DNA of 29,376 nt from Desulfobacterales bacterium (GCA_030672555.1 DAOVGD010000040.1:1-29376); one strand, 5' to 3'. Shown: positions 3,932-26,765, counted from the first letter of the stretch. Numbers and translations: made by a program. The notes: a model not told the origin generated them from the letters alone.

Positions 3932-4022
3932 TTAGCAAAGCGCAAGGCGCAAGGCGCAGAGAGTAAATTGATGGTTTCGAAAAAACAAAAAAACCTTTGC
4001 TTTATGCTATGCGCTTTGCTAA
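3932..4022. repeat. Inverted heptamer-arm element with a perfect 13-bp terminal inverted repeat
   Basis: TTAGCAAAGCGCA 3932-3944 pairs with TGCGCTTTGCTAA 4010-4022; GCGCAAG units in the left arm; the right end contains the lpxL stop. Confidence 0.85.
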
Positions 4023-4921
4023 CTCTTCGGCCGTGGCCGATGACGCTTGGTTTTCCATCGTCGATGCAACCAGAACCACTGATCAGGATATTGGCGCACT
4101 ACCGATTCTATAATCTTTGTATATAGTTGAGTATTGGTTTCTACATCCTTTGCTTTGTCTCCGGTCCTGATCAGAGGGACTTCAGGGGCGCACAATATCT
4201 TGTAATGCGAACCATCGCGTACTAAAAATATAGGGACTATCGGCGCTTCGGTCTTAAGGGCAAGAAGCGCCAGGCCTTTGGTGGTAGAGGCCGGACGTCC
4301 AAAGAAATCTACGAACACACCATCACGCCTGTTAGCATTTTGGTCGAGTAAAACTCCCACCAATTTTCCTTGCTTCAGGCGTTTTAAGACCGTGCGCATG
4401 GAAGACTTCTTGGGGATTATGCCTCCTCCGTGCCATGTCCTGAGTTTGGAAACAAAGATATCCAATGGCTTAGAATCAAGCGGTCGCGCTATACTATCGG
4501 GAGGATATCCCAAGAGGGATAAAACTGCTGGGAGTAATTCCCAACTCCCTACATGAGCGCTTAGACACAATATCCCCCTCCTTTTTTGGTAGGCGGCCTG
4601 AAGGTGGTGCAATCCCTCTACCGTGATGAGACTTCCCAAGCCTTTGCGTCGAAGCTTAGGAATCAGGGTCAGCTCAAATGGAGTTTGCATCAGGTTTTCA
4701 AAGACCTTGCAGGCAATATTTCGTATCTCCCCGGGATTCTTTTCACGTCCAAAGGCATGAGTTAAATTTTCTATTGTTATGTTTCGATGCCTTTTATCAA
4801 TCAGAAAAAAAAGCCGTCCTATCAGACGTCCCAATTTACGCAACCACGTTAAGGGGATTAGTCCGAGGAGATTGAAAAATATTGTGATTATCCGATAAAT
4901 TATTTTTTCAGTGCTGTTCAT
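4019..4921 (-). CDS. lpxL: Lipid A late (lauroyl-type) acyltransferase, HtrB/LpxL family
   Basis: SAHVGSWE, LLDQ and QWFWLHRRWK motifs. Confidence 0.85.
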   Translation of the reverse strand: MNSTEKIIYRIITIFFNLLGLIPLTWLRKLGRLIGRLFFLIDKRHRNITIENLTHAFGREKNPGEIRNIACKVFENLMQTPFELTLIPKLRRKGLGSLITVEGLHHLQAAYQKRRGILCLSAHVGSWELLPAVLSLLGYPPDSIARPLDSKPLDIFVSKLRTWHGGGIIPKKSSMRTVLKRLKQGKLVGVLLDQNANRRDGVFVDFFGRPASTTKGLALLALKTEAPIVPIFLVRDGSHYKILCAPEVPLIRTGDKAKDVETNTQLYTKIIESVVRQYPDQWFWLHRRWKTKRHRPRPKS

Positions 4922-4931
4922 GTGTCATGAA

Positions 4932-5060
4932 AATTTAGGAATTTAGGAATTTAGGAATTTAGGAATTGGGGAATTAGAATCATAAAATTCGTTTAATTCG
5001 GAATCCCTAAATTCCTGAATTCGCAATTAAGCGAAGCGGCATTCGCAATTCCTCAATCCC
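4932..5060. repeat. Inverted octamer-arm element (AATTTAGG family)
   Basis: Four perfect AATTTAGG units 4932-4963 plus AATTGGGG; the right arm of AATTCCTN-type units at 5002-5060 is interrupted by GCGAAGC (5031-5037) and contains the lpxK stop. Confidence 0.9.
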
Positions 5061-6192
5061 CCGATTTGCTTTTAATAAAATTTTCGAAAGCCGGTGTATC
5101 TTCTCCAAATGATATAGATATCACAAGAATCAATGTAGGAAAAGATGCCGGGAGTCTGTTTCCGATTCTTACGTAATCCTTTTCTGTAGTAACGATATAA
5201 TCAACGTTAAGTCCCTTTGCTGTTTGCAAAATTTTTGTCACATCGCTGTTCGAATACCGGTAGTGGTCCGGGAATGGTATAAATTTTACAATAGTAGTCC
5301 CGAGTTCGGCAAGCAGGGCAGCAAAATCTTCATTTTTGGCAATTCCAGAAAAAGCAAGAACCGTTCGGCCTGTGAGAATCTCTACATTATGGGTTTTGCC
5401 GGTTGCCGGCTCTCTTAATTCGCTTGGGATGTGAGAACATCTGAAAATAGGTCTCCCGGGTAGATATTTTTGGATATCCCGAACACTATTGGTTGAGCCC
5501 TTTAGTGTTTTATGCCGGGTCAGAACAACAGCGTCTGCGCGTCTTAAGTGCTCAACAGGTTCCCGCAGCGGTCCTCTTGGGATAAGATACCCGTTTCCAA
5601 ACGGTTTTTCTGCGTCGCACAGACAAAGATTAAGATCACGTTCCAATTGAATGTGCTGAAAGGCATCATCAAGGAGTAAAATGTCGGGGTTGAATGTACT
5701 AATAGCCTTGTTCCCGGCCCGATTCCGATTACTTCCCACAACGACTGGAATTCCTTCTAGCCTGGTTGCCATCAGATAGGGCTCGTCACCGGCCTGTTCC
5801 ACTTCCATCCGGATCGTTTTTTCATTGGAAACAATCCCACCAGTCTTTTCAGCGCTCCCTCCATATCCCCGGCTGACTACGGCCACCCGGTATCCGGATC
5901 GTTTCAGCAGATCTGCTATATATATGGCAAGAGGGGTCTTGCCGGTACCCCCAACCGTCAAATTCCCGATTGAGATCACCTTGCACGGCAACTGGTTTGA
6001 TTTTATAATTCCATTTTTATAAAAGGAGGTTTTTATACGAACAATAGCACTATAGGCAAGTGAAAAAAGATAGAGGATAAACTCCAACACGGACGAAAAA
6101 GGGGCAGTATCCTCCTTTTTCATGATCGCTTCAATTTTTCTTTGTAATAGTTCACCGCAAAGACGCAAAGATCGCAAAGTCTTAAGACCCAT
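5053..6192 (-). CDS. lpxK: Tetraacyldisaccharide 4'-kinase (start uncertain: 6192 or 6123)
   Basis: VISIGNLTVGGTGKTP, SRGYG, GDEP, LDDAFQH, GPLREP and FPDHYRY motifs. Confidence 0.95.
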   Translation of the reverse strand: MGLKTLRSLRLCGELLQRKIEAIMKKEDTAPFSSVLEFILYLFSLAYSAIVRIKTSFYKNGIIKSNQLPCKVISIGNLTVGGTGKTPLAIYIADLLKRSGYRVAVVSRGYGGSAEKTGGIVSNEKTIRMEVEQAGDEPYLMATRLEGIPVVVGSNRNRAGNKAISTFNPDILLLDDAFQHIQLERDLNLCLCDAEKPFGNGYLIPRGPLREPVEHLRRADAVVLTRHKTLKGSTNSVRDIQKYLPGRPIFRCSHIPSELREPATGKTHNVEILTGRTVLAFSGIAKNEDFAALLAELGTTIVKFIPFPDHYRYSNSDVTKILQTAKGLNVDYIVTTEKDYVRIGNRLPASFPTLILVISISFGEDTPAFENFIKSKSGD

Positions 6193-6225
6193 TCAATTCC
6201 CCAATTCCTCAATTCCTCAATTCCT
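6153..6225. repeat. Chimeric junction: CGCAAAGA-unit arm next to a CAATTCCT-unit arm
   Basis: CGCAAAG x3 at 6156-6179; CAATTCC(C/T) x4 at 6194-6225, containing the waaA stop at 6209-6211. Confidence 0.85.
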
Positions 6226-7525
6226 TTTCAATCACTTTCAGTGTTTTTTCTACCGCTCCTCTATTTTCTTGAAGTACTTTGTACGCTTGATCTCCAACGG
6301 TTTTTGCTGCTGTGGGATCAGACAGAATAGTAGTAGCTGCTTTCAGAAGATGATTGGCATCTTCCACCATTATAGCGCCTTGTGCCTGTACAAGGGTATT
6401 GGCAATCCATTCAAAGTTGTGCATATGAGGGCCAAAAAGTATCGGTTTTTTAAACATCGCAGGTTCTATGGGGTTGTGACCCCCGTGTTTTATCAAACTG
6501 CCCCCCACAAAAACCGTGTCAGCGATCGCATAGAGCCTTCTCAGTTCCCCAAGGGTGTCCACAATAATTACTTCTGGAGGAATGCCGTGAGCCCCGCCGG
6601 GGCGGGGTTTAAGGGCGGTTTTTAAAGTTGAGGGAAGGTCTGCGTCCGCCAATAATCTTTTTATAGATTCGGCTCGATCAGGATGCCTTGGCACAATAAG
6701 GGTCACCAAATCGGGAAATCTTTGTTTCAACTCCTTGAGGGGATGTGCGAGGAGCTCTTCTTCCCCCGTGTGAGTACTTCCGGCCAAAAATATCTTACTG
6801 TTTTTTGCGATACCAAGCGATTCCCTTAACCGCATCCGTTCTGCGTCCGGCATTGTTTCAAGGGGGAGGTCAAATTTTATATTCCCTGTGACTTCAATTC
6901 TTTTCCGTGGCGCGCCAATCTCTGCGAAGCGATCTGCATCTTTTTGGGTTTGCAGGCATAGCCAGGAGAGATTGGAAAATACCCACTCCATAAAAAAGGA
7001 GATCTTTTTGTACCTCTTGAATGAACGCGGAGAAATCCTTCCATTCACAAAGAGCGCGGGTGTCCCGCGTTTTCTTATTTCAAAGAGGAAATTCGGCCAA
7101 ATATCTGACTCAAACAGGATAAAGATAGCAGGATCTATCCCCTTTATAATCCTTTTTACACTCCAGACAAAATCGTACGGAAATAAAACGATTGCATCGC
7201 ATGTCTTTGCCAATCGTTTTTTCGCGATTTCAAACCCGGTGTGGGTGGAGGCGGAGACAACAAGGGGATAATCAGGGAAACGGCTTTTGATCGATTGTGC
7301 CAATGGAATGGCCGATAGTATTTCTCCTACTGAAATGGCATGAAGCCAGATCGGTCTGCGTGAAAATCGATGAGGGCGGAAGCCGATTCCAAGCCGTTTT
7401 AGTACGGTCTTTTGCCTCTTTTCAAGGGTCAGGGCGCTTACTATGGTAACAGGAAGCGAGAGTACCATACCTACAACAAGGAGGAGGTTATACAGAAGCG
7501 AGAGCATTGTTGACTTTGTGTTCAC
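6209..7525 (-). CDS. waaA: Kdo transferase
   Basis: IWLHAISVGE, ESDIWPN, TGNIKFD, AGSTH, IVPRHPDR, DTLGEL and GGHNPIEPA motifs; GTG start 7525 or ATG 7507. Confidence 0.95.
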   Translation of the reverse strand: MNTKSTMLSLLYNLLLVVGMVLSLPVTIVSALTLEKRQKTVLKRLGIGFRPHRFSRRPIWLHAISVGEILSAIPLAQSIKSRFPDYPLVVSASTHTGFEIAKKRLAKTCDAIVLFPYDFVWSVKRIIKGIDPAIFILFESDIWPNFLFEIRKRGTPALFVNGRISPRSFKRYKKISFFMEWVFSNLSWLCLQTQKDADRFAEIGAPRKRIEVTGNIKFDLPLETMPDAERMRLRESLGIAKNSKIFLAGSTHTGEEELLAHPLKELKQRFPDLVTLIVPRHPDRAESIKRLLADADLPSTLKTALKPRPGGAHGIPPEVIIVDTLGELRRLYAIADTVFVGGSLIKHGGHNPIEPAMFKKPILFGPHMHNFEWIANTLVQAQGAIMVEDANHLLKAATTILSDPTAAKTVGDQAYKVLQENRGAVEKTLKVIEKELRN

Positions 7526-7551
7526 CAGTTCACGTCCTTTTTGGTTTTATA

Positions 7552-7644
7552 GATTTAGGAATTTAGGGATTCAGGAATTGTTTGGATCTCGGTCTATTCT
7601 AATTCACAATTCCCCAATTCCTTAATCCTTAAATTCCCCAATTC
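7552..7644. repeat. Inverted octamer-arm element (AATTTAGG family)
   Basis: Left arm GATTTAGG AATTTAGG GATTCAGG AATTG 7552-7580; right arm CAATTCCC CAATTCCT TAATCCTT AAATTCCC CAATT(C) from 7608. Confidence 0.85.
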
Positions 7645-7647
7645 ATA

Positions 7648-8724
7648 CTATTGTTTCGTGTTTACAAGTAAGAACAAACCAATGGTCCCGAAAAGGATAT
7701 TGGCAAACCAGGCTGCCACAACCGCTGGAACAACCCCTGAATAACCAAGCGTTCGCGCTACTACAAGGGTTACCAAATAGAGGAGCGTAATCCCAAGGCT
7801 TATTCCGATTCCTGTTGCTGTACCGACCCCTTTTTCTTTGCGGAGAGCAAGCGGAATGCCGATCAGGCTCATTATTACACATATAAATGGGAAAGATAGC
7901 TTTATATGCATATCAACCAGATACCGGCATGCGTCGTATCCTTCGTTAATAATCTTTTTCGCATATTCGCGTAACTCTGCGAACCCCATTTCATCTGAGT
8001 ATTTCACTTCCCTTTTAAAGTCGTTTGGGGTTTCGACGAGGTCGAAAATCTTCTCTTTAAAAGTGATTATTTTGTAAGAGCCGTTTTTGTCTGCCTCCTT
8101 TACAATCCCATTGTGAAAGGACCAGTGGTCTTTCTCCCAGGTTGCGCTGTGAGCCTGGATACGACGGATTAATCTGAAATTGCTGTCAAATTGATTGATG
8201 ATTACACCTTCTAAGGTTTTCGTCCTGCTGTTGAAACTTCGGATATTATAGATGGCGTTTTCCCCTTTATACCACAGTTGTTTGGATTTATAGATGAGTT
8301 CATGTGGTTTCTTTTTCACATGGCTTCTCCATATGGTATTCACCTTGCGATTGGCATAGGGAACGATAAATTCGCTGGTAATAAAGCTTATTGTTGTGAT
8401 TATAAGTGCAATAGCAATAAAAGGGGCGCCGATCCGGAAAAGACTGATCCCATTTGCCTTCATGGCAATAATTTCATGGTTCCTGGAAAATATACCCAAC
8501 GTAATAATTGTGGACATCAAGGCTGCCATGGGAGCCATTTGTACACTAACGAAAGGGACCTTATATATAAAATAGGTTAGTGCATGTTCGGTTGCCTTAG
8601 CTTCGATAAAGTCATCGATTTTTTCAAAGAAGTCGACCAGCATATATAGCATGACAAACGCCGAGAATGTGATGGCAAATAATTTAAGAAATTCTTTGCT
8701 TATATATCGCGTGATAATTGTCAT
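7648..8724 (-). CDS. lptG: LPS export ABC transporter permease LptG
   Basis: YjgP/YjgQ architecture; SRNHEIIAMKANGISL; second of the tandem permease pair. Confidence 0.85.
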   Translation of the reverse strand: MTIITRYISKEFLKLFAITFSAFVMLYMLVDFFEKIDDFIEAKATEHALTYFIYKVPFVSVQMAPMAALMSTIITLGIFSRNHEIIAMKANGISLFRIGAPFIAIALIITTISFITSEFIVPYANRKVNTIWRSHVKKKPHELIYKSKQLWYKGENAIYNIRSFNSRTKTLEGVIINQFDSNFRLIRRIQAHSATWEKDHWSFHNGIVKEADKNGSYKIITFKEKIFDLVETPNDFKREVKYSDEMGFAELREYAKKIINEGYDACRYLVDMHIKLSFPFICVIMSLIGIPLALRKEKGVGTATGIGISLGITLLYLVTLVVARTLGYSGVVPAVVAAWFANILFGTIGLFLLVNTKQ

Positions 8725-8747
8725 AGTAACAGTTCAGCTATTCTCTT

Positions 8748-8834
8748 GAGAGGATAAACAGAAACGGCGGGATAATTTTTTGTCCTGTTTTTGGATTAAC
8801 TGGATTTATATCATGTCTATCCTGTTATCCTGTC
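8748..8834. repeat. Degenerate inverted element with CAGGAT-type units
   Basis: GAGAGGATAAACAG 8748-8761 and GGATTAACTGGATT 8793-8806 oppose ATCCTGTTATCCTGTC 8819-8834. Confidence 0.45.
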
Positions 8835-8873
8835 AAAATATTTTTTATCTGGTGAATTATTACTTTCATATAA

Positions 8874-10052
8874 TCAACTTTCGTCCCGTGAGCGCACAAG
8901 TTGGCGAAGGCGTTCAGACAGACGATTAAAAAGACTCAAAAGCTTTATAGGCTCTTCTCTTGATGCCTTTCGCACCATAAAGATTGTCAGCGCTCCGAGA
9001 AAGATATTTGGGAACCAAATCCCCAGCGCTGGGGGATAAATACCGGAGTCATCGAAGCTCTTCCCCGCAGCAAAAAGGATATAATAAAGGAGAAAAATTC
9101 CAAGGCCGAATGATACACCCCCGGGCGAGCCGGAGATTTTCGTCTGCATCCCCAGAGGTACGGCAATCAGGCCGAGAATAATACAGGACAGAGGAAACGC
9201 AAATTTCTTGTGAAGCTCCATTAAGTAAAGATTATATTCTATGTCCTTGCTCTTGCATGATTTGAGCTTTGCAATAAGTTCTGAGATAGACATTTCGCTC
9301 TTTCTAATCCCTCTCTCTTCCCGGGTTTTCGCCAATTGCTGCAGATCGAGGGATAATTCATACGTGCTGAACCAAATAGTATCAGAACTCGTCATGTCTT
9401 GGCTGTCGTAGTGAATATTGCCTTCGATCAGTTTAAGCGCCAATCTCTTTTGCTCGGGGTCTGACACTATAACCCCCTTTTTAGCAATGATAGTATTTGA
9501 GAGACGCGGATCTCTTTTGTCCGAAATAAAAATGTCTTGTAGAAATTTTCCTGAAACATCTACTTCATTGGCATAAAGGACTATATCTTTAAAGTCGTCA
9601 TTGAAATGGCGGGGTTTTATCCCAGCGTATGCCCTTTCACTTGCCACTGAATAAACCAGCTCATTGAAGGCTCGTTTCCCTTTTGGCATGGCATAGATAG
9701 CCATATAGCTTGCGCATAGATAAGCAAATACAGAAAGAACAAAAACCGGAGGAAGGATCTGGTAAAGGCTGATGCCGGAAGCCTTGATTGCAGTCATTTC
9801 GTTATCATGAGAAAGCCTTAAAAAAGTCAAAAGCACGGCCAATAGCGTGGAAATCGGCAATGTAAATACAAAGGAATAGGGGAGGGTATATAGAATTAAA
9901 AGACCTATTGCGGATGGTGGCACCCCTTTGTTTATTATGAGATCTGTAAAGGTAAATACCTTTGTGACGAGGAGAACGAAAGTAAAGGTGATGATGCTGA
10001 CAGTAAAAAACTGAAAAAGTTCTTTTAAAATATATCGATGAAGGATGGTCAT
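8874..10052 (-). CDS. lptF: LPS export ABC transporter permease LptF
   Basis: RLSHDNEMTAIKASGISL and ELHKKFAFPLSC motifs; first of the pair, directly after msbA. Confidence 0.85.
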   Translation of the reverse strand: MTILHRYILKELFQFFTVSIITFTFVLLVTKVFTFTDLIINKGVPPSAIGLLILYTLPYSFVFTLPISTLLAVLLTFLRLSHDNEMTAIKASGISLYQILPPVFVLSVFAYLCASYMAIYAMPKGKRAFNELVYSVASERAYAGIKPRHFNDDFKDIVLYANEVDVSGKFLQDIFISDKRDPRLSNTIIAKKGVIVSDPEQKRLALKLIEGNIHYDSQDMTSSDTIWFSTYELSLDLQQLAKTREERGIRKSEMSISELIAKLKSCKSKDIEYNLYLMELHKKFAFPLSCIILGLIAVPLGMQTKISGSPGGVSFGLGIFLLYYILFAAGKSFDDSGIYPPALGIWFPNIFLGALTIFMVRKASREEPIKLLSLFNRLSERLRQLVRSRDES

Positions 10053-10183
10053 TTGTCATTTATCATTAGTCATTTGACATCTGTCATTTATCATTTAAGA
10101 ATCCCGGTTTGGAGGGCTTATATTCCAAGCGAGAATCAATGCGATTTTCAATGATAAATGATAAATGAGAGATGATCAATGAT
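10049..10183. repeat. Inverted heptamer-arm element (TCATTTG / AAATGAT)
   Basis: Seven TCATTTR-like units 10049-10097 and five AAATGAT-like units 10149-10183; contains the lptF ATG and the msbA TGA. Confidence 0.9.
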
Positions 10184-11927: not shown

Positions 11928-11933
11928 CTGTTA

Positions 11934-12122
11934 CTGGTTACTGGTTTCTGGTTTCTGGTTGCTGGTTTCTGACCTCTGACTTCTGACTTCTGACCTCTGA
12001 TTTCTGACTTCTGACTTCTGACCCCTGACTTCTGACCTCTGACCTCTGACCTCTGACCTCTGATTTCTGACCTCTGACTTCTGACCTCTGACTTCTGACC
12101 TCTGACCTCTGACTTCTGGTTA
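11934..12122. repeat. 27 x 7-nt tandem array (CTGACYT / CTGGTTN)
   Basis: Five CTGGTTN units 11934-11968, 21 CTGAYYY units 11969-12115 and one CTGGTTA unit 12116-12122; 189 bp in total. Confidence 0.95.
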
Positions 12123-13913: not shown

Positions 13914-14015
13914 GCTTCGCTTTGCTTCGCAATTGGTCGAGTTGTTAAATCGTCGAGTGGTCGAGTCGGATATTGGTTGCCCACTCAACAACTCGACAAC
14001 TATACCACTCGACTA
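13914..14015. repeat. Inverted octamer-arm element (GAGTnGTY family) with terminal GCGAAGC motif
   Basis: TGGTCGAG-type units 13934-13965; CCACTCGA-type units 13981-14015 ending in the stop of the upstream gene; GCTTCGC x2 at 13914-13930. Confidence 0.85.
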
Positions 14016-14960
14016 AACCCACTTTGCTTTCTTTATTTGATCTATAACGCTCAGGGCCACTTTAAGGGCGTTTCTCCCGTCACGGCCTGAGACTGCAGGC
14101 ACTTCTCGGTTTGATACACAACGTATGAACGATCGTAATTCCGCGTCTAAGGGGTCTGCCTGTGTGAAATTCATCCGCTTTATATCCATTCCGGGGATAA
14201 GACCAGACGAATTGTTATTATACCGTTTTACCACGGTGATATCATGATTTGCATAATCCACAGATACATATGCGTCATTTTGAAAAATGCGGATCTTACG
14301 CATCGTTTTCATGGAGATACGGCTTGCTGTTATATTGGCGACGCAGTTGTTTGCAAATGTCAGTCTGGCGTTTGCTATATCTATGTTGGGAGACACCACC
14401 GATACCCCGACCGCATCGATGTCTTTGATTTCTGATTTAACAAAATTTAATATGATATCAATATCATGAATCATTAAATCGAGAACTACGTCGACATCGG
14501 TGCCCCTTTCCTGATAGGCGCTCAAGCGATGAGATTCAATGAACATCGGTTGGTTGATAACACCTTCAAGCGCTATGACCGCAGGATTAAACCGTTCTAA
14601 GTGGCCGACCTGAATAATCGGTCCCCGTGCATCAGCGATGTCGACCAAGGTGTTGGCCTCTTCCAGGGTTGTCGTTATGGGCTTTTCTATCAATACATCA
14701 ACATCATTTTCCAAAAAGTCTTTACTGATATCGAAATGATACGGTGTTTGAGTTACAACACTCACGGCATCTACCTTGCCAATAAGGTTCTTATAGTTCG
14801 TAAACGCCGCGGTATTGAATTTATGGGCAACTGACTGAGTCTTGCCTGGGTCTCTATCTACAACCCCGACCAACTCTACGTCGTCCATGCGAGCATACTT
14901 TTCAGCATGAAACTTACCAAGATATCCAACACCTACTACGCCAACCTTTATTTTTTCCAT
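14013..14960 (-). CDS. Gfo/Idh/MocA oxidoreductase, probable GnnA-type UDP-GlcNAc 3-dehydrogenase
   Basis: GVVGVGYLG, LIEKPI, QVGHLERFNPA and LDLMIHDIDI motifs; immediately upstream of lpxB. Confidence 0.8.
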   Translation of the reverse strand: MEKIKVGVVGVGYLGKFHAEKYARMDDVELVGVVDRDPGKTQSVAHKFNTAAFTNYKNLIGKVDAVSVVTQTPYHFDISKDFLENDVDVLIEKPITTTLEEANTLVDIADARGPIIQVGHLERFNPAVIALEGVINQPMFIESHRLSAYQERGTDVDVVLDLMIHDIDIILNFVKSEIKDIDAVGVSVVSPNIDIANARLTFANNCVANITASRISMKTMRKIRIFQNDAYVSVDYANHDITVVKRYNNNSSGLIPGMDIKRMNFTQADPLDAELRSFIRCVSNREVPAVSGRDGRNALKVALSVIDQIKKAKWV

Positions 14961-15111
14961 TTTTGCAATTTGCTCCTGTCTATAGATTTTAAGATAAAGT
15001 TTTTGGGGTTCATAATCATTCTATTATCACGGATAATTTAGGGATTTCGAATTAGAGGAATTCTATATCTTACGTTTCGATAGTTTTTATTGTATTCTTC
15101 GAATTAAATAC

Positions 15112-15127
15112 ACACTATATCTTGTGT
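15112..15127. promoter_or_regulatory. NrdR-box-like operator
   Basis: ACACTATATCTTGTGT matches the consensus acaCwAtATaTwGtgt at 15 of 16 positions; single copy, with no ribonucleotide reductase gene in the window. Confidence 0.35.
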
Positions 15128-15200
15128 CTGGCTCGAAATACGCGCGATAGGTAATGTGTCTCTCGTTGGATTCTTGGGTTATTACTCGCGAAACCCGGCT

Positions 15201-15264
15201 GTTAAGCCGTTGAGTTGCTGATCTACGATACGTTGCCGTTGGTCCATAAACTCAGCCACTTAAC
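15201..15264. repeat. Imperfect hairpin with two octamer-like units per arm
   Basis: GTTAAGCCGTTGAGTT 15201-15216 pairs with AACTCAGCCACTTAAC 15249-15264 at 14 of 16 positions (one G-T pair). Confidence 0.6.
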
Positions 15265-15343
15265 GGTGGGCAATGCCCACCCTACAGTATTGCAAATAAC
15301 ACTCTGAAATGGCTAATCTTTCGTAGGGTGGGCATTGCCCACC
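15265..15343. repeat. GTAG-type REP doublet (REPIN-like)
   Basis: GGTGGGCAATGCCCACCCTAC 15265-15285 and its exact reverse complement GTAGGGTGGGCATTGCCCACC 15323-15343; each has an internal palindrome and a GTAG foot. Confidence 0.85.
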
Positions 15344-15570
15344 ATTTTCGGCTATTAAATTAGATTTGACCATTTAAAACTAGCGAAACGTATGCTATAT
15401 GGTTCTAATTCCTAAATTCCTGAATCCCTCAATTCCTTTTAGTACAAAACGGTACTATTATCAGAATTACAACAAAATGAAAACAGCTATCACTGAAATC
15501 TGTGAATTGACGGGGCTAAGTTCCCTTTTTCAAGGAAAAATGTTATCTCTCTTTTAAGAAAAAAGTGTTA

Positions 15571-16806
<1,236 letters not shown>

Positions 16807-16814
16807 TAAGTTAA

Positions 16815-17574: not shown

Positions 17575-17585
17575 GAGGTGATAAA

Positions 17586-18086: not shown

Positions 18087-18089
18087 CAC

Positions 18090-18138: not shown

Positions 18139-18163
18139 TGGTTTCGTAAAAAGTCTCGGTAGC

Positions 18164-18311: not shown

Positions 18312-18360
18312 ATTCGTTGAATCCGACTTTTTACGAGATCATCAAGATTGACCAATAACT

Positions 18361-18654
18361 GTGAAATTATCAATACAAGAAACCGGAAAAGGTGTTTTAT
18401 TTAAAGCGGTTATTCAACCCAGATCTTCCAAAAACATTATTGTAGGCATCCATGGTGATGCGTTAAAGATCAAATTGACGGCTCCCCCGGTTGAGGGCGC
18501 GGCGAACAAGCTTTGCGTCAAGTTCCTTGCATCCATATTAAAAGTATCCCCATCTGATATAGAGATTGTCAGCGGACAGAGCGGACGAAAGAAAAAGATC
18601 CTTGTTCATTCGGTAACTCGCAAGTATTTAGAGTCAAAACTATCCCTTATTTAA
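18361..18654 (+). CDS. DUF167 / YggU family protein
   Basis: IQPRSSKN...LKIKLTAPPVEGAANK...IVSGQSGRKK; GTG start. Confidence 0.9.
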   Translation: MKLSIQETGKGVLFKAVIQPRSSKNIIVGIHGDALKIKLTAPPVEGAANKLCVKFLASILKVSPSDIEIVSGQSGRKKKILVHSVTRKYLESKLSLI

Positions 18655-18695
18655 CCACTCGACCACTCGACTACTCGACCACTCGACCCGAAGCG
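18653..18695. repeat. Solo octamer arm (GACYACTC) with shortened terminal motif
   Basis: AACCACTC GACCACTC GACTACTC GACCACTC GACC, then CGAAGCG; overlaps the DUF167 stop. Confidence 0.85.
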
Positions 18696-18737
18696 TTTCC
18701 CTTGACTCCTTACTATCCTTTTGATAATCATTTTCAC

Positions 18738-21700
18738 ATGTCAACTTCTGATTTCATTCATCTCCATGTCCATACCGAATACAGCCTTTTGGATGGAGCA
18801 ATCCGTCTGGACGACCTGATTCATAAGGCAGAATCGTATGGGATGTCTGCCGTGACCATGACCGATCATGGAACCATGTTCGGTGCGCTGTCATTTTATA
18901 AAAAGGTATCTAAAGCAGGGATGCGGCCGATTATAGGGTGTGAGGTTTATGTTGCACCCAAGAGCCGATTTGATAAAAATCCTCATGATAAGTCCGGTGG
19001 GTCCTACCATCTTGTCTTGTTGGCACGAAACAAAAAAGGATATCAAAATCTTTGCCGGCTTGCCACCATCGCACAATTGGAAGGGTTTTATTACAAACCA
19101 CGTATAGACAAAGAAGTGCTTAGGGAACATAGCGAGGGGCTTATTGCATTGAGCGCATGTCTGCACGGCGAGATCCCTCGTCTTATACAGAAAGATCGTA
19201 TAGATCTGGCAAAGGAAGTAGCGCTCTTTTACCAGTCACTTTTTGGAGAGGGACGATTTTATCTGGAGGTACAGGCGAATGGGATTGCTGAACAGGAGAA
19301 GGTCAATGCAGCTCTGCTTGAGATGAGTCGGGAACTTTCAATCCCTCTTGTAGCCACCAACGACTGTCACTATCTTAATTCCCAGGATGTCCGGGCTCAC
19401 GAGATCCTTCTGTGTATTCAGACCGGAAAGACTATTCACGATGAAAAGCGGTTCAGATTCAGGACCGACCAGCTTTACTTTAAGTCTCCGGATGAGATGA
19501 AAAAAGATTTTGCAAGTTATCCGGGTGCCATAGAAAATTCGGTGCATATTGCCGGCCAATGCAATGTAGAACTTGAATTCGGAAAGTATCATTTTCCAAA
19601 ATTTCCAATTGACCCTGGTGAAACAGCGGCTGAAAGAATGGCCCGTAACGCAGAAACCGGGTTAAAACAACGGTTACAAGAGATAGGTGAGCGACACCAG
19701 GGGCCTGTAGATGAAGAACAGTACCGGAAGCGTTTAAGATATGAGATCGATGTAATCCAGAAGATGGGTTTCCCCGGCTATTTTTTGGTAGTTGCCGATT
19801 TTATACGTTATGCCAAAGAGGCAGGTGTTCCGGTAGGACCGGGTCGCGGCTCGGCTGCAGGGAGCTTGGTGGCCTATTCTCTCGGAATCACAGAACTCGA
19901 CCCCATCGAATACGGGCTGATCTTCGAACGGTTTTTGAACCCTGGAAGACAGAGTATGCCCGATATTGATGTGGATTTCTGTATGGATAAACGTGAGGCG
20001 GTTTTCAAGTATGTATTAGACAAATACGGCGGTCCTGATCACGTTGCTCAGATTATCACATTCGGAAAACTGCAGGCCCGCGCGGTGATCCGTGATGTGG
20101 GACGAGCCCTTGATATCCCCCTTCGAGAAGTCGACGTTATTGCCAAATTGATTCCTGATGTCCTGAAGATTACCATTGAGCAGGCGATTCAACAGGAGCC
20201 TAGACTGCGGAAGATGGAGCGGGAAGATCCCCGGGTAAAAGAACTTCTTTCCATTGCGCGTGTTTTGGAAGGGCTTCCCAGGCATGCATCCACGCATGCG
20301 GCAGGTGTCGTGATTTCAGGCAGACCGCTGGTCGAATATCTTCCCCTTTACAAAGGCTCAAAGGGTGAGGTGGTCACCCAGTATGACATGAAGTGTGTGG
20401 AGGCTATCGGGCTGATTAAGTTCGACTTTTTAGGGCTCCGCACATTGACCGTAATAGACCATGCCCTAAAGCTCATACGAGAAAGACATGGTAATGCCCC
20501 GGACATTTCCAGGCTTGATATGGAAGACACCAAGACCTTTGAGCTTTTGTGTGCGGGGAAGACCACCGGCGTATTTCAGCTGGAAAGTTCGGGCATGAAG
20601 GACATTTTGGTCAAGTTGAAGCCCGAATCGTTCAATGAGATCATTGCGCTGGTGGCCCTTTACAGGCCTGGACCGTTGGAAAGCGGAATGGTCGATGATT
20701 TTATTAAACGGAAACACGGCAAGGTGGAAGTCGCTTATCTTGTACCCGAGCTTGAACCTATCCTGAAAGATACCTATGGCGTTATCCTCTACCAGGAGCA
20801 GGCAATGAAAATAGCTTCTGTTCTTGCGAACTATTCCATGGCCGAGGCGGATAATCTCAGGAAGGCCATGGGCAAGAAGGTCTCAGAGATTATGGTACAG
20901 GAGAGGAAGCGCTTCTTAGAAGGGGCAAATGATAACGGAATTGATCTGAAAAAGGCCGAAGCCATATTCGATCTAATCGAAAAGTTCGGGGGGTACGGCT
21001 TTAATAAGTCACATAGCGCAGCATATGCACTTATCGTCTATCAGACCGCTTATCTAAAGGCCAACTATCCGATCGAGTTTATGGCATCCGTGCTTACCAG
21101 TGAAATGGGAACCACAGACAATGTGGTCAAGTATATTACCGAGTGTCGCAATCAGGGAATTCCCGTCCTTCCGCCTGACATTAATGAGAGTGGGAAGGAT
21201 TTTACAGTGGTGGAACAAAGTATTCGATTCGGACTTGCCGCGATAAAAAACGTGGGTGAGGGTGCGATCGAATCGATTATTGCTGCCAGAGAGACGGATG
21301 GCTCTTTTAAATCAATTTATGATTTTTGTGAGCGGGTTGATTTACGTAGGGTTAACAAACGGGTAGTTGAGAGCCTTATAAAATGCGGCGCTTTTGATTC
21401 CACAGGCGCAAAACGCTCACAGATGTTGTATGTGATGGAAGATGCCTTAGAGATCGGGCAGAAAAGGCAAAAAGACAGGATAAGCGGGCAATTTAACCTG
21501 TTCGGCGCTACAGCCCAGGAGGGCGGGGTACAGCCGACACTACCGGACATGGAGGAATGGCCGGAGAATCAACGATTAGCCTTTGAAAAAGAGACATTAG
21601 GTTTTTTCGTTACCGGCCACCCCTTGGCCAAGTATGAAAAGATCCTCTCCAAATATACCTCTGCTGATACGCTGAAAATTTTGGATTTTCCAGATGGCAG

Positions 21701-22214
21701 ACAGGTGAGAATCGGAGGAGTAGTAAGTAGCTTTAAGGTGATTACTGACCGAAAAGGGGGGAGGATGGCGTTTGTAACATTAGAGGATCTGCACGGCTTC
21801 GTGGAAGTGACCCTCTTTGCTTCGGTCTATGAGAAGGTATCGGAATTCATAGATACGGATGTCCCTATTTTGGTAGACGGTCATATAACCAAGGACGAAA
21901 AGTCAGTAAAAATATTAGCAGATTCCGTAAGCCCGCTTTCAAAAGCAGAAGAGCTGAGCGCCACAGCAGTAAATTTTAATATTGATGTAACAGGGATTGA
22001 TAAGGAGCAACTAAAAGAGTTTCGTTCAATATTGGGCAACTATAAAGGGGAATGCCCCGCCTTTATCAATCTGCGAATTCCACGAAAGTCAGAGACTGTA
22101 ATCGCGCTCCCCGATTCACTGAGAGTACAACCAGGACACGCGCTTTCCGAAGCAGTGGATCGTTATTTCGGGCAAGAAGTAGTTGAAATCGTGTTTCAAG
22201 GGACCGCTAAATGA
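18738..22214 (+). CDS. dnaE: DNA polymerase III alpha subunit
   Basis: PHP domain FIHLHVHTEYSLLDG, GPGRGSAAGSLVAY, MPDIDVDF, KFDFLGL, GYGFNKSHS and OB fold; ATG 18738 preferred over TTG 18702. Confidence 0.98.
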   Translation: MSTSDFIHLHVHTEYSLLDGAIRLDDLIHKAESYGMSAVTMTDHGTMFGALSFYKKVSKAGMRPIIGCEVYVAPKSRFDKNPHDKSGGSYHLVLLARNKKGYQNLCRLATIAQLEGFYYKPRIDKEVLREHSEGLIALSACLHGEIPRLIQKDRIDLAKEVALFYQSLFGEGRFYLEVQANGIAEQEKVNAALLEMSRELSIPLVATNDCHYLNSQDVRAHEILLCIQTGKTIHDEKRFRFRTDQLYFKSPDEMKKDFASYPGAIENSVHIAGQCNVELEFGKYHFPKFPIDPGETAAERMARNAETGLKQRLQEIGERHQGPVDEEQYRKRLRYEIDVIQKMGFPGYFLVVADFIRYAKEAGVPVGPGRGSAAGSLVAYSLGITELDPIEYGLIFERFLNPGRQSMPDIDVDFCMDKREAVFKYVLDKYGGPDHVAQIITFGKLQARAVIRDVGRALDIPLREVDVIAKLIPDVLKITIEQAIQQEPRLRKMEREDPRVKELLSIARVLEGLPRHASTHAAGVVISGRPLVEYLPLYKGSKGEVVTQYDMKCVEAIGLIKFDFLGLRTLTVIDHALKLIRERHGNAPDISRLDMEDTKTFELLCAGKTTGVFQLESSGMKDILVKLKPESFNEIIALVALYRPGPLESGMVDDFIKRKHGKVEVAYLVPELEPILKDTYGVILYQEQAMKIASVLANYSMAEADNLRKAMGKKVSEIMVQERKRFLEGANDNGIDLKKAEAIFDLIEKFGGYGFNKSHSAAYALIVYQTAYLKANYPIEFMASVLTSEMGTTDNVVKYITECRNQGIPVLPPDINESGKDFTVVEQSIRFGLAAIKNVGEGAIESIIAARETDGSFKSIYDFCERVDLRRVNKRVVESLIKCGAFDSTGAKRSQMLYVMEDALEIGQKRQKDRISGQFNLFGATAQEGGVQPTLPDMEEWPENQRLAFEKETLGFFVTGHPLAKYEKILSKYTSADTLKILDFPDGRQVRIGGVVSSFKVITDRKGGRMAFVTLEDLHGFVEVTLFASVYEKVSEFIDTDVPILVDGHITKDEKSVKILADSVSPLSKAEELSATAVNFNIDVTGIDKEQLKEFRSILGNYKGECPAFINLRIPRKSETVIALPDSLRVQPGHALSEAVDRYFGQEVVEIVFQGTAK

Positions 22215-22942
22215 AAGCCTACACTGAGAGAACATATCGGAATATTATTTCTGAAAACAAGCTTACATCGTTTCGGGTCGTTGTCAAGGAGACCGATCTG
22301 TTGGTGAGAGCGGATCGGGAATTGGTAGCTGAAACAGAAAAAAGTGTTATAAGGCATCGTAGACTTATAGAGGAATATATGGATCGATTCCCCTCTTTTT
22401 TACATACATTGACTCCCTTTCCGGATGACCAATTTGCGCCTCCTGTTGTTCGGGACATGGTCGAGGCGGGAAAGCTTGCCGGTGTGGGCCCAATGGCATC
22501 TGTTGCGGGTGCAATTGCAGAATGGGTTGGACGTGATCTTTTAAATTATTCCCAAGAGATTGTCGTGGAGAATGGTGGGGATATTTTTATAAAAACAGAC
22601 AAGCCGTTTACGGCGGGAATTTTTGCCGGGTCCTCACCGTTGAGTAATAAAGTGGGGCTCGAAATAGACCCCGGAGATAAGCAGATTGCGGTCTGTACTT
22701 CTTCCGGAACAGTGGGACATTCTCTTAGTATGGGTAAATCTGATGCCGTAACAGTGGTGTCTCGTTCCGCATCCCTGGCAGATGCGACCGCTACCGCTGT
22801 CGGGAATCTGATTTCTGATAAAAAGGCTATAGACAAGGGGCTAACATTTGCGGAGTCGATCGCAGGGGTAATAGGCGTTGTAATTGTGGTCGGCGACAGA
22901 CTCGGTGTAAGGGGGGATCTGAAGCTGGTACGGACTGGTTGA
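22211..22942 (+). CDS. UPF0280 family (ApbE-like) protein
   Basis: ETDLLV, VGPMASVAGAI, ENGGDI, CTSSGTVGHSLS and ADATATA motifs; ATGA overlap with dnaE. Confidence 0.9.
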   Translation: MKAYTERTYRNIISENKLTSFRVVVKETDLLVRADRELVAETEKSVIRHRRLIEEYMDRFPSFLHTLTPFPDDQFAPPVVRDMVEAGKLAGVGPMASVAGAIAEWVGRDLLNYSQEIVVENGGDIFIKTDKPFTAGIFAGSSPLSNKVGLEIDPGDKQIAVCTSSGTVGHSLSMGKSDAVTVVSRSASLADATATAVGNLISDKKAIDKGLTFAESIAGVIGVVIVVGDRLGVRGDLKLVRTG

Positions 22943-23060
22943 GTCGTCGAATGGTCAAATGGTTGAGTGGTTTGTTTCTAACAACTTGACGACTTGACGA
23001 TTTGACCACTTGACCATTTAACGACTTGACCGCTTAACCAATTGCGAAACGAAGTGGAGC
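22933..23060. repeat. Inverted octamer-arm element (GAGTnGTY family) with terminal motif
   Basis: Five left units 22933-22972, eight right units 22980-23043, and TTGCGAAACGAAGTGGAGC 23042-23060; contains the UPF0280 stop. Confidence 0.9.
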
Positions 23061-23078
23061 AATTTTCTCGGAGGAAAT

Positions 23079-23462
23079 ATGAAGAAATTTAAACTGATAC
23101 TCTTGTTGATTATTGCCGCCTTTATAGGCCTTTTTGTATATCAAAATTTGGCGGTTTTTACACATCTCTTTGACTTGAAACTCAATATCGGGATTAAGCG
23201 CTACGAGATGCTTAATATTCAATCTTCTCTTATCCTTTTAAGTTTGTTTCTGCTTGGATTTTTACTTGCCTATTTTCTCAGCCTGGGAGAACGTTTGAAA
23301 GCAAGAAGGGCTCTGAAGTCGAACAGTGAGAAGATAAAGGACCTGGAAGAAGAGTTAAATATGCTTAAGGGCGTGTCTGCAACCGTTGAAAGCGCCACAG
23401 ATGAAGATACTGCACCGGAAGACGTTGTTTCTGAAGAGCCTCCCTCAGAAGGAAGAACTTAG
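23079..23462 (+). CDS. LapA-domain (DUF1049-like) membrane protein
   Basis: Two hydrophobic helices with the FVYQN motif, then coiled coil and an acidic tail; GGAGG Shine-Dalgarno. Confidence 0.7.
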   Translation: MKKFKLILLLIIAAFIGLFVYQNLAVFTHLFDLKLNIGIKRYEMLNIQSSLILLSLFLLGFLLAYFLSLGERLKARRALKSNSEKIKDLEEELNMLKGVSATVESATDEDTAPEDVVSEEPPSEGRT

Positions 23463-23471
23463 GGGGACAAA

Positions 23472-23498
23472 ATGGAGTAATGGACTCCAATACTCCAT
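23472..23498. repeat. Minimal collapsed element with GGAGTAAT-type units
   Basis: ATGGAGTAATGGA-C-TCCAATACTCCAT: a 12/13 inverted repeat around a 1-nt centre. Confidence 0.75.
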
Positions 23499-23564
23499 GT
23501 CCATGGCAGAAACACGCTATTTCAATAAGCTTAAAAATTTGTAAGCATTTAAAAGTGTCCGTCC

Positions 23565-26180
23565 ATGTCGGTTAAAATCACTCCAATGGTACAGCAGTAC
23601 CATTCTATAAAAAAGGAGTATCCTGACGCACTCCTTTTTTATAGAATGGGCGATTTTTATGAGATGTTCTTTGAAGATGCTGAGATTGCCTCCCGTATCC
23701 TCGACATTACCTTAACATCCCGAAATAAAAAAGATGACAAACCTATTCCAATGTGTGGAGTCCCATATCACGCCGCACAGAGATATATTGCGCGCTTGAT
23801 AGAGAATGGATACAAGGTTGCTGTCTGTGAACAGGTCGAAGATCCACGTCAAGCAAAAGGGCTAGTAAAGCGGGATGTGGTCCGTGTAGTGACTCCGGGT
23901 GTGGTTATTGATACGGAACTATTGGATGCCAAATCAAACAATTTTATTATGGCGCTGTTCCGTTACAAAGGTTATTTTGGGCTTGCTTGTCTTGACATCT
24001 CTACTGGTGACTTTCGAGTAACCGAGTCGGATTCCTTCAATGCTGTCGTTGACGAGTCTTTGCGTATAGATCCGAGCGAGATTCTTATTCCAGGATCGAT
24101 TCGAGAGGATTCGGAAATCAAGGTCCTTCTATCCTATTTGAACGAAAGAACGGTCTCTCTATTAGACGATTCCCTGTTTGAATTAGATAGAGCTCAAACC
24201 GCACTTTTAAAACAATTCAATACCCATTCCCTGGAGGGGTTCGGATGTGATGAAATGCATGCGGGGATCTCGGCTGCAGGAGCCCTTTTTCAATATATTC
24301 ACGAAACGCAAAAGGGTATAGTCCCGCATGTCAATCATATTGTCGCATATTTTCTTGCGGACTATATGGTGCTGGATGATACCACAAAGAGAAACCTGGA
24401 ACTTTTTGAGACCATACGTACCCGTTCAAGGACAGGAACACTCCTTTGGGTACTTGATAAGACCATGACTTCCATGGGTGGTCGGATGATTCGTCAATGG
24501 TTGAATTATCCTCTCCTTGACGCGGAAAAGTTAAGGCTCCGGCTGGACGCAGTGGAAGAGGCAAAGGAAAATATAACATTGCGTGGGGCACTGCGTGATG
24601 CACTTTCAGGTGTTTATGACCTGGAGCGTCTGAACTCGAGAATTGTCTTAGCTCACTCCAATGCCCGGGATCTTATTGCCCTGAAGCGTTCTGTTAGAAA
24701 AATCCCGGAGATTAGCACCTTGATAGAAACATTTCAATCCGATCTGTTTCGGCAAATCCAGATAGAGTTGGATGACCTGGCCGATGTGGGGGATATGATC
24801 GAAGAGTCGATTTGCGATGACCCGCCACATACCATTCATGAAGGTGGGATGATCAAGCCCGGGTGCAATGCAGAGCTGGATGAGATTGTAAGTATCTGTA
24901 AAGGCGGCAAAGAGTGGATCGCGAGTTTAGAAGCAAAGGAGCGGGAGACAACCGGAATAAATTCATTAAAAGTCGGTTTTAATAAGGTCTTTGGATACTA
25001 TATTGAAGTTTCAAAAACCCATATCAAATCAGTTCCTTCTTATTACGTTCGCAGGCAGACATTGGTGAATGCAGAGAGATATATTACAGAAGACCTAAAG
25101 AGATACGAAACTAAGGTGTTAACTGCCGAGGAGAGACGGGCTGCGCTGGAATATGACCTCTTTAATGGAATAAGGGGAAAGATAATACAAAACAACCTCC
25201 GAATTCAAAAGACCGCAACTCTGTTGGCAAAGTTGGATGTCCTTTGTTCTTTAGCAGAGGTGGCGGACAAAAATGGTTACGTAAAACCGGGGATCAAGGA
25301 AGACGGAATACTCTTTATGGAAGATGTCCGTCATCCGGTGATCGAGAAGATGATGGCAGGGGAACGGTTCGTTCCCAACACAATAAAGATGGATGATGAA
25401 GACCGGCAGGTCTTGATTGTTACGGGCCCTAATATGGCCGGCAAATCAACGATCTTACGTCAGGTTGCGTTAGTGGTGTTGATGGCACAGGTCGGCTCGT
25501 TTGTCCCTGCCGAATCTGCTTCCCTAAGTATTGTAGATCGTATATTTACACGAGTCGGAGCGCTTGACAACTTGGGGCAGGGAGAGAGTACTTTTATGGT
25601 GGAAATGCAGGAGACTGCCAGGATTTTGAATGCTGCTACAGAAAAAAGCCTGATTATACTTGATGAGATCGGAAGGGGGACCAGTACCTTTGACGGGCTT
25701 AGTATCGCATGGGCTGTTGCCGAATACCTTCATGACAGGAAGGGGAGGGGTATTAAAACCATTTTTGCCACCCATTATCATGAACTGACCGATCTTGCCG
25801 CTACCAAGTCGCGAGTAAAAAATTACAATGTTGCTGTAAGAGAGTGGAATGGGGAGATCATTTTTTTAAGAAAGCTGATCGAAGGCGGAACAAATAGAAG
25901 TTATGGAATCCAAGTAGCAAGGTTGGCCGGCATTCCCAAAGATGTTGTAGAAAGAGCAAAAGAGGTCCTCAAAAATATTGAAAAAGGCGAGCTGAACGAA
26001 GAAGGAGAACCAAACATTGCTCGCTCCAAAAAAAGACCGAAAAAACATGCTGATGTGCAGTTAACACTTTTTAAAACTTCCAATCATGCATTGGTGGATA
26101 AACTGGAACAGATAGACGTTTCCAACACGACACCTCTTGAAGCTCTAAATGTGCTGAATGAATTAAAGCAGATGATTTAA
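23565..26180 (+). CDS. mutS: DNA mismatch repair protein MutS
   Basis: TPMVQQY, FYRMGDFYEMF, PMCGVP, TGPNMAGKST, STFMVEM, DEIGRGTST, FATHYHEL and SYGIQVA motifs. Confidence 0.98.
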   Translation: MSVKITPMVQQYHSIKKEYPDALLFYRMGDFYEMFFEDAEIASRILDITLTSRNKKDDKPIPMCGVPYHAAQRYIARLIENGYKVAVCEQVEDPRQAKGLVKRDVVRVVTPGVVIDTELLDAKSNNFIMALFRYKGYFGLACLDISTGDFRVTESDSFNAVVDESLRIDPSEILIPGSIREDSEIKVLLSYLNERTVSLLDDSLFELDRAQTALLKQFNTHSLEGFGCDEMHAGISAAGALFQYIHETQKGIVPHVNHIVAYFLADYMVLDDTTKRNLELFETIRTRSRTGTLLWVLDKTMTSMGGRMIRQWLNYPLLDAEKLRLRLDAVEEAKENITLRGALRDALSGVYDLERLNSRIVLAHSNARDLIALKRSVRKIPEISTLIETFQSDLFRQIQIELDDLADVGDMIEESICDDPPHTIHEGGMIKPGCNAELDEIVSICKGGKEWIASLEAKERETTGINSLKVGFNKVFGYYIEVSKTHIKSVPSYYVRRQTLVNAERYITEDLKRYETKVLTAEERRAALEYDLFNGIRGKIIQNNLRIQKTATLLAKLDVLCSLAEVADKNGYVKPGIKEDGILFMEDVRHPVIEKMMAGERFVPNTIKMDDEDRQVLIVTGPNMAGKSTILRQVALVVLMAQVGSFVPAESASLSIVDRIFTRVGALDNLGQGESTFMVEMQETARILNAATEKSLIILDEIGRGTSTFDGLSIAWAVAEYLHDRKGRGIKTIFATHYHELTDLAATKSRVKNYNVAVREWNGEIIFLRKLIEGGTNRSYGIQVARLAGIPKDVVERAKEVLKNIEKGELNEEGEPNIARSKKRPKKHADVQLTLFKTSNHALVDKLEQIDVSNTTPLEALNVLNELKQMI

Positions 26181-26255
26181 CAGGGCATCTGGACAATATG
26201 TAGTTAATATGATATATCGATTCACAACATCTTGTATGTTTTATTGGGGGGTATC

Positions 26256-26765
26256 TTGAGAGAGGTTGCATCCTGTTATCGTATTTTTGGACTGGATGAA
26301 AGAGCGACATTTAATGATATTAAATTGGCCTACCGAAAATTGGCAAAGAGGTATCATCCGGATATTGTCTCAAACAGAAATGGATCTAACAATTTTGCAG
26401 GCGTGGAAAGACTCAAAAAGATCAATAGCGCCTATGACTATCTCCGACGCAGACATATTGAAAGTAGACGTAATCTCTACTCAGGATGGTTGGGATTTAG
26501 CATCATTATGGGAAGGTTCAACAATAAGACGTGTCCAGTGGTATCTCACGTGTCGGAATGCTCTCCGGCAGTGCTCGCAGGGCTTTGTGTTGATGATTAT
26601 ATAATCGGTTTTAATGATTGTAACACACTTGGAATGGCAAGGGAGGAGATCGTTAAGATTTTTTCAGGAAAAGCCGGAATTCCGGTAAAAATGAAGGTTT
26701 ATCGTAAAACCAAAGAAACTATATACACGCTATATGCAATACGTCTACCGCGTCCTCATCGTTAG
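26256..26765 (+). CDS. J-domain (DnaJ-like) plus PDZ-like domain protein
   Basis: IKLAYRKLAKRYHPD J-domain; C-terminal GWLGFSI...SPAVLAGL...DDYII...G...PVKMKVYR PDZ-like pattern. The ORF opens at 26232; TTG 26256 follows GGGGG. Confidence 0.7.
   Translation: MREVASCYRIFGLDERATFNDIKLAYRKLAKRYHPDIVSNRNGSNNFAGVERLKKINSAYDYLRRRHIESRRNLYSGWLGFSIIMGRFNNKTCPVVSHVSECSPAVLAGLCVDDYIIGFNDCNTLGMAREEIVKIFSGKAGIPVKMKVYRKTKETIYTLYAIRLPRPHR

Follow-up and report, generated by a model that had tools for sequence, protein, structure and literature searches.

Structured intergenic repeats located within operons, at or over the stop codon of the upstream gene, are represented by the REP, BIME and REPIN sequences and by the MIRUs. 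A REP consists of one palindrome, 20-40 nt long, whose head is conserved, and is mobilised by a RAYT transposase, and the units of mycobacterial MIRUs measure 46-101 bp. Elements with a similar placement are found in a 29,376-nt stretch of DNA from a Desulfobacterales bacterium (DAOVGD010000040.1, hereafter the window), where they lie at the stop codons of ten genes, but their arms are tandem arrays of 7-8-nt units rather than single palindromes. Their presence at gene ends is probably explained by crowding of fast-turnover arrays together with selection on the host genes, and not by a purpose-built terminator. Comparison with orthologs shows that, in this genus of Desulfobacterales, abundant short tandem repeats keep rewriting the last residues and the stops of conserved genes, including lipid A/lipopolysaccharide genes and tgt. 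In practice, neither annotation nor alignment-based inference can rely on the C-termini of such genomes.

Heptamer and octamer arrays of related kinds have been described in several lineages. Direct repeats of TAACTGA are present in marine Beggiatoaceae, cyanobacteria, and Bacteroidetes; in the forward direction they stop all three frames, their overlap with the ends of open reading frames (ORFs) is at most 18 nt, and 13 repeat sets overlap the stop of the upstream gene (MacGregor, 2015; PMC4679880). The arrays of the window resemble them in being intergenic heptamers with all-frame stops that overlap upstream stops. This is a likeness in behavior and not in membership: one unit dominates there, whereas 243 distinct 7/8-nt units are found here, mostly as inverted pairs that form hairpins, with C-terminal replacement shown by orthologs. 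No TAACTGA tandem of at least two units occurs on either strand of the genome.

In Geobacter metallireducens, paired tandem sites of the types GTTGCTYN x4, TCTCCGTS(Y) x3, and MTYCTGA x5 have been read as binding sites for a global regulator, in a report whose main text does not mention stop codons (Aklujkar, 2009; PMC2700814). They too are octamer or heptamer arrays that occur in opposite-strand pairs with variable spacing, and their host is likewise a former deltaproteobacterium. The MTYCTGA consensus fits the CTTCTGA variant of one array of the window (11968-12118), and two (MTYCTGA)x3 runs are found in the genome; the other families differ. The LSSR/STRR class (long simple sequence repeats and STRR heptamers) includes the quadruplex-forming, G-rich heptamers of Xanthomonas and Nostoc, and heptamer repeats are strongly biased to the vicinity of stop codons or overlap ORFs (Rehm, 2015; PMC4692102). 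The arrays described here have the characters of LSSR/STRR, being abundant, mainly intergenic 7-8-nt tandems with fast turnover whose non-multiple-of-3 units are kept out of gene bodies, and they share with the Rehm heptamers the abundance of 7-nt arrays between co-oriented genes. Those heptamers are G-rich, form quadruplexes, and are under-represented between divergent genes; the arrays here, in contrast, are AT-rich, diverse, and hairpin-forming, and they are found just as often between divergent genes. Both this type of repeat and its stop effect are thus already known, and the organism, the array density, and the ortholog-controlled C-terminal rewriting are new. No new mechanism is revealed; the stop effect is a product of arithmetic and selection and has already been described for TAACTGA repeats; the finding bears on ideas of what these unexplained repeats do.

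The Ten Stop Codons and Their Repeat Arms

The window is contig C147 of a fragmented metagenome-assembled genome (MAG), called G000 (1.79 Mb, 213 contigs, 81% complete). Its closest public records are MAGs of uncultured Desulfobacterales. The only public run that contains the whole stretch is a marine sediment metagenome, the probable source sample, and no RNA run is listed as containing it. Five genomes of the same genus were available, and syntenic regions were taken from four of them (G001, G002, G003, and G005); G000 and G001 are both MAGs. Genes were called as ORFs of at least 90 aa picked greedily by length. Arrays were called by Tandem Repeats Finder (TRF), whose 1467 rows genome-wide were reduced to 914 non-redundant arrays of period 6-9.

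The ten genes named by the original prediction are genuine. Nine have a Pfam match, as an LpxL-type acyltransferase, LpxK, a Kdo transferase (waaA), an MsbA-like ABC exporter, a DUF374 protein, a GFO/IDH/MocA oxidoreductase (gnnA-like), Tgt, a DUF167 protein, and a DnaJ-PDZ protein (J-PDZ), and UPF0280 is a candidate without Pfam match. All ten stops were correctly located in that prediction, with TAG 4019, TGA 5053, TGA 6209, TGA 10176, TAA 12120, and TAG 14013 on the minus strand and TAG 16722, TAA 18652, TGA 22940, and TAG 26763 on the plus strand. The associated repeats, three of which are accompanied by a 19-nt tail motif, are the following.

4010-4022, minus strand: proximal arm of the lpxL hairpin, containing TAG 4019-4021; perfect 13-bp inverted repeat with 3932-3944
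3932-3944: partner arm of the lpxL hairpin, within a GCAAGGC array at 3935-3958
5041-5062, minus strand: degenerate AATTCCnn units at the lpxK end, containing TGA 5053-5055; recognized by sequence reading and fold
6193-6225, minus strand: TCAATTCC octamer array between the lpxK start and the waaA stop; TRF
10150-10183, minus strand: AATGATA heptamer arm overlapping the last codon and TGA 10176-10178 of msbA; partner arm 10048-10096; TRF
11930-12122, minus strand: array of the DUF374-msbA spacer, about 27 heptamers, GTTWCTG then TCTGACY; TRF
13983-14015, minus strand: ACTCGACA-type arm with the gnnA-like TAG at its foot; partner arm 13934-13966; tail motif 13914-13932 (minus)
16703-16738, plus strand: GAGTAGTY octamer arm with TAG 16722-16724 of tgt; partner arm 16750-16781; tail motif 16788-16806 (plus)
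18654-18688, plus strand: ACCACTCG octamer array beginning at the last base of the DUF167 TAA; TRF
22936-22972, plus strand: TGGTYGAR octamer arm with TGA 22940-22942 of UPF0280 inside the stem; partner arm 22984-23031; tail motif 23042-23060 (plus)
26763-26793, plus strand: TAGTCGAG octamer arm opening with TAG 26763-26765 of J-PDZ; partner arm 26833-26869; TRF

That all ten stops lie inside repeat units, as had been proposed, is true for most of them. A TRF array overlaps the stop in seven of the ten (waaA, tgt, msbA, UPF0280, J-PDZ, the gnnA-like gene, and DUF167), the lpxL stop lies in an inverted repeat, and that of lpxK falls within degenerate GGGATTGA/GGAATTGC units missed by TRF. The TAA of DUF374 (12120-12122), on the other hand, only adjoins the last unit of its array, and the overlap at DUF167, as at the gnnA-like gene, is limited to the last base of the stop. 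The unit ACCACTCG has no sense-strand stop, and the DUF167 arm therefore does not supply the stop, whose position is common to G001 and G002, where the arrays are shorter. Upstream of the stop, the array extends over 14 nt in waaA, 19 nt in tgt, 5 nt in msbA, 4 nt in UPF0280, and 0 nt in J-PDZ.

Inverted arm pairs start at 3932/4010, 4932/5000, 7553/7607, 10048/10150, 13934/13983, 16703/16750, 22936/22984, and 26763/26833. Folding of the elements yields long hairpins (-29 to -50 kcal/mol, z between -3.1 and -6.8) in which the stop is located within the stem or at its foot. Thus, the fold amounts to -29.3 kcal/mol for lpxL (z -3.8), -43.9 for the gnnA-like gene (z -6.4), -44.3 for tgt (z -5.7), and -39.8 for J-PDZ (z -6.5). 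The degenerate units of lpxK form the distal part of an arm whose partner is the AATTTAGG array at 4932-4975 (-39.5 kcal/mol, z -5.5), and in the UPF0280 stem GGTTGAGTCGT at 22937 pairs with ACGACTTGACC at 23021.

Replacement of Native C-Termini

Comparison with orthologous sequences of the same genus shows that the arms have replaced the native tail and stop of lpxK, waaA, the gnnA-like gene, and tgt. The TCAATTCC array encodes the last residues of WaaA, ELRN, and its TGA (6209-6211); the protein ends in ..EKELRN in G000, in ..EKELGELRN in G001, where one extra unit lies inside the gene, and in the unrelated ..ERLMMT in G002. Similarly, the tgt arm encodes the last seven residues of Tgt and the TAG, in place of seven native codons and a stop: the ends are ..LRKEYCEVRIA in G001 and ..LRKEYCV in G002, and the end is array-coded in G000. 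Relative to G001 and G002, six codons, the stop, and the spacer of the gnnA-like gene have been replaced by the element. The LpxK tail following FENFIK differs in every congener, and two of these tails, AKAQRTQRKN and EIEELRD, are array-coded. Between 5 and 16 native codons were lost in tgt, the gnnA-like gene, and lpxK, and the Pfam domains end just upstream of the replaced residues.

The converse case is provided by a 1170-aa DnaE-like gene (18702-22214), which is element-free in G000, where it overlaps the next gene in ATGA, and which ends in GGAATTGA- or GAGCTGA-type arms in G001-G003. The tail of LpxL also varies among congeners. The G002 ortholog (C96) reads through a GAGCAGA-type array (..AESREQRAESK..) and stops about 28 residues later, so that here a stop-free arm has added a long tail.

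In a wider test, 193 ortholog pairs were obtained by comparing 412 kb of G001 with the whole of G000. Of the 16 pairs with an array at the end of one partner only, 2 align to both C-termini and 14 are divergent; in the controls without an array at either 3' end, 102 of 151 align to both C-termini and 32% are divergent (Fisher p = 2.6e-5). Unaligned tails are about 5 aa long on average and reach 13 aa. Many unrelated proteins carry stereotyped array-coded tails, ending in ..EELRN or ..EELRD (GGAATTGA), ..LKIED (GATTGAA), or ..ELGN. There is one such tail per stop-bearing family because the stop triplet of the unit fixes the frame of the preceding codons.

The frame arithmetic set out in the original prediction was confirmed: each of the three triplet sets that it named covers frames 0, 1, and 2, and the CTGACYT array has no minus-strand stop within the repeat, that is, none on the transcribed strand, and seven per frame on the plus strand. 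As 7 and 8 are not multiples of 3, a stop-bearing unit closes all three frames within three units, so that termination persists when the copy number changes, as seen for waaA in G001 and for J-PDZ in G002, in which the first TAG is lost and the TAG of the next unit ends the gene.

Abundance, Placement, and Turnover of the Arrays

The arrays are not particular to these ten genes. Of the 914 arrays in the 1.79 Mb of G000, 744 have a period of 7 or 8, and 208 arrays were found in 412 kb of G001. The window accounts for 38 TRF rows, nearly all of period 7 or 8 and located between genes. In G000, 76% of array bases lie outside gene calls, and among the mid-gene arrays (n = 120) period 9 is the most frequent (52). 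Genes ending in an array make up 84 of 1529 crude calls (5.5%) in G000 and 23 of 353 in the 412 kb of G001.

An array is present in 28% of tandem, 29% of convergent, and 26% of divergent junctions, and the median spacer measures 30-35 nt without an array and 181 nt with one. Orthologous junctions between genes that are 85-90% identical differ, as they harbor other families, other copy numbers, or no array. The unit families recur at many loci and in other species, each with its inverted partner arm and one with the 19-nt tail. When contigs from four public runs were compared, the arrays showed very high word depth, and in cold-seep relatives the segment 7526-7650 is swapped for a shorter sequence.

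A Probable Explanation: Crowding and Selection at Gene Ends

How the arms came to lie over so many stops may be pictured as follows. Fast-turnover tandem arrays of 7-9-nt units saturate the genome, with about 900 of them in 1.8 Mb, and many are arranged as inverted pairs that form hairpins. Since native spacers are tiny, new or expanding arrays would often enter the upstream gene, whose last few codons are dispensable. The frame would then end at the first in-frame stop met within the arm, giving a short stereotyped tail such as ..EELRN, and selection on host genes would keep mainly those intrusions that stop early, outside the conserved domain. We infer the order of these events, with insertion or expansion preceding the filter of selection, as well as the way in which arrays spread. 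Direct observation covers the arrays and their hairpins, the replacement of C-termini, and the absence of stop enrichment among the units.

The original prediction had regarded the arms as built-in terminators that minimize damage to the host. The comparison of units with random ones that it called for showed no stop enrichment, with a stop content of 0.359 per strand over all G000 arrays against 0.401 +/- 0.009 in composition-matched shuffles, of 0.368 against 0.400 +/- 0.017 at the level of the 243 distinct units, and of 0.315 against 0.406 +/- 0.018 for the units of G001. Furthermore, 41% of the arrays are stop-free on both strands, and closure of all three frames is limited to 24% of array strands. 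Arrays located 0-60 nt after a stop show no strand bias in G000, where 0.31-0.39 are stop-bearing in the sense and 0.34-0.39 in the antisense direction, nor in G001 (sense 0.29, antisense 0.34). The equal occupancy of tandem, convergent, and divergent junctions indicates that gene 3' ends are not preferred. A sense-strand stop enrichment beside ORF 5' ends was attributed to the longest-ORF calling rule and was not used.

The outcomes named in the original prediction as speaking against it were borne out in part: the overlap rate is explained by the short spacers, and four of the ten genes retain the stop position found in orthologs without the element. The intruding share (15-23%), counted either as 62 of 269 tandem junctions or as 115 of 741 array-end pairs, corresponds to random landing if the last 12-21 nt (4-7 codons) of a gene are expendable, so that no targeting is needed. 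This expendable length matches the size of the replaced tails, and the array length upstream of the stop is approximately uniform over 0-23 nt, as random entry phase predicts.

Among the 115 intruding arrays, 84 end the frame and 31 are read through. Sense-strand stops are carried by 0.62 of them (71/115; p = 3e-6 vs. 0.40), and by 55% of 31 intruding arrays in G001. The share falls to 0.56 if the array has to extend at least 6 nt upstream of the stop, a threshold that preferentially drops stop-bearing arrays and is thus not a fair correction, which is why both the raw and the thresholded figures are given. We read this enrichment as selection on host genes, the persisting intrusions being those that stop early and outside the conserved domain. 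What survives of the terminator proposal is that frames do end in the arms, that native tail and stop are usually replaced where orthologs lack the element, and that the arrangement tolerates changes in copy number; the built-in, damage-minimizing design is not supported by these counts.

Several points weigh against crowding and selection as the explanation. The gene calls are crude and their starts unreliable, and, in a fragmented and 81% complete MAG whose contigs are probably broken by repeats, arrays at contig ends are under-sampled. The enrichment of 0.62 could be inflated where TRF has drawn into the array a native stop that matches the unit by chance. Replacement was found for lpxK, waaA, the gnnA-like gene, and tgt, but four of the ten genes (msbA, DUF374, UPF0280, and J-PDZ) keep the stop position of their element-free orthologs. 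Thus, MsbA ends in KNDH at the same position as KNDK in the element-free G005, the C-terminus of the DUF374 protein is equally long in congeners without the array, and the UPF0280 stop is placed as in the orthologs. Protein length is likewise the same in 7 of the 16 informative ortholog pairs. These retained lengths and stop positions exceed what simple random intrusion would give and hint at seeding at stop codons.

Other Explanations for Arms at Stops

Growth of the arrays in place, by slippage from a short seed that includes the native stop, would account for these observations, the stop being merely incorporated into the array. In keeping with this idea, besides the four retained stops and the seven equal-length ends, G003 has the sequence ggtTGAgtg at the UPF0280 stop without an array, and the orthologous arrays of DUF167 and of waaA contain different numbers of units. 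Arrays starting 0-3 nt before the stop are in slight excess (17/60; p = 0.06), at which level a strong preference for arrays starting at the stop was set aside. However, slippage does not readily produce divergent tails of up to 13 aa in 14 of 16 pairs or the loss of native codons in tgt, the gnnA-like gene, and lpxK, and the recurring families with an inverted partner arm, one with its 19-nt tail, argue for copying of pre-formed elements. We therefore regard slippage from native stops as unlikely to be the general origin of the arms, although it fares best among the alternatives to crowding and selection.

It is doubtful that the hairpins are kept at stops for a role in RNA, be it REP-like stabilization of mRNA, control of termination or coupling, or regulator binding. 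Such a role would fit the strong hairpins that hold the stop in the stem or at its foot, as well as the family with the tail motif, which is co-oriented with transcription in 10/10 cases and lies 4-24 nt from the next start in 7/10, and heptamer repeats have been proposed as regulator binding sites (PMC4679880; PMC2700814). Orthologous junctions, however, have unrelated families or no element, which leaves no conserved site-specific function, and the occupancy is equal across junction types.

An equally doubtful idea is that stop-bearing arms are actively favored at gene ends, through microhomology copying or through selection for frame-independent stop cassettes. Were units with TGA, TAG, or TAA copied by microhomology into stop contexts, the retained stop positions and the equal-length tails would be explained; were stop cassettes and their tails (..EELRN, ..LKIED) favored, they would buffer slippage or mark proteins.

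Least probable is an adaptation of the arms as all-frame translation terminators by which a mobile element cheaply colonizes the ends even of essential genes: intruders with sense-strand stops are frequent (62% vs. a 36% baseline), termination persists through copy-number change, and the tail-motif family is co-oriented with its flanking genes, but stop triplets are slightly depleted in the units of two genomes and at the family level, stop-free arrays, open frames, and read-through are common, strand bias is lacking just downstream of stops, and arrays are equally frequent between divergent genes, where there is no gene 3' end.

Tail Motif, Nested Elements, and Gene-Bearing Cassettes

The 19-nt tail motif, TTGCGAARCRAAGYGRAGC, is present in 12 copies in the genome, forms a small stem-loop, and contains GGAG. 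In addition to the three copies of the window, it is found on contigs C34, C81, C101, C117, C143, C175, and C212 of G000. In the 10 informative cases out of 10 it lies between co-oriented genes and points in the same direction, and in 7 of these 10 the start of the next ORF is 4-24 nt away.

Gene direction switches near 14000-15600 in the window, with all genes on the minus strand to the left of a cumulative GC skew minimum at about 14-15 kb and nearly all on the plus strand to its right. This divergent point could be a candidate replication origin region. The divergent layout around 14-15 kb confounds tests of element orientation against transcription.

S23p genes (PF05635, the 23S rRNA intervening-sequence protein) are bracketed by heptamer or octamer arrays in five or six cases in G000. 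The brackets are clearly inverted in some of them (AGGTTCA vs. AACCCTG), and at least two S23p genes end inside an array. The cassettes are located as follows.

C111:1526-1955, S23p cassette
C125:6151-6550, S23p cassette
C146:3436-3861, S23p cassette
C139:3200-3830, S23p cassette
C182:529-978, S23p cassette

Unlike these cassettes, the elements at the ten stops carry no gene, and the gene-free hairpin elements may be empty relatives of the S23p cassettes. Two matches to Y1_Tnp (PF01797), at C45:2397-2720 and C29:1029-1352 of G000, lie in open frames of 356-368 aa, and the corresponding proteins are candidate mobilizers of the hairpin elements.

Composite elements are also encountered. An identical short insert, ATGCCGCTTCGCTTAAT, interrupts one GGGATTGAGG arm at the lpxK end (window 4998-5062) and another on C58 of G000, which indicates that composite nested elements recur. 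In G003 (C34), 3' of the J-PDZ ortholog, a separate 40-nt palindrome, AGACCTTTGAAAAAC..GTTTTTCAAAGGTCT, is located between the TAG stop and the octamer arm; with TAG on its left and TTAG on its right, it resembles a nested insertion with a short target duplication.

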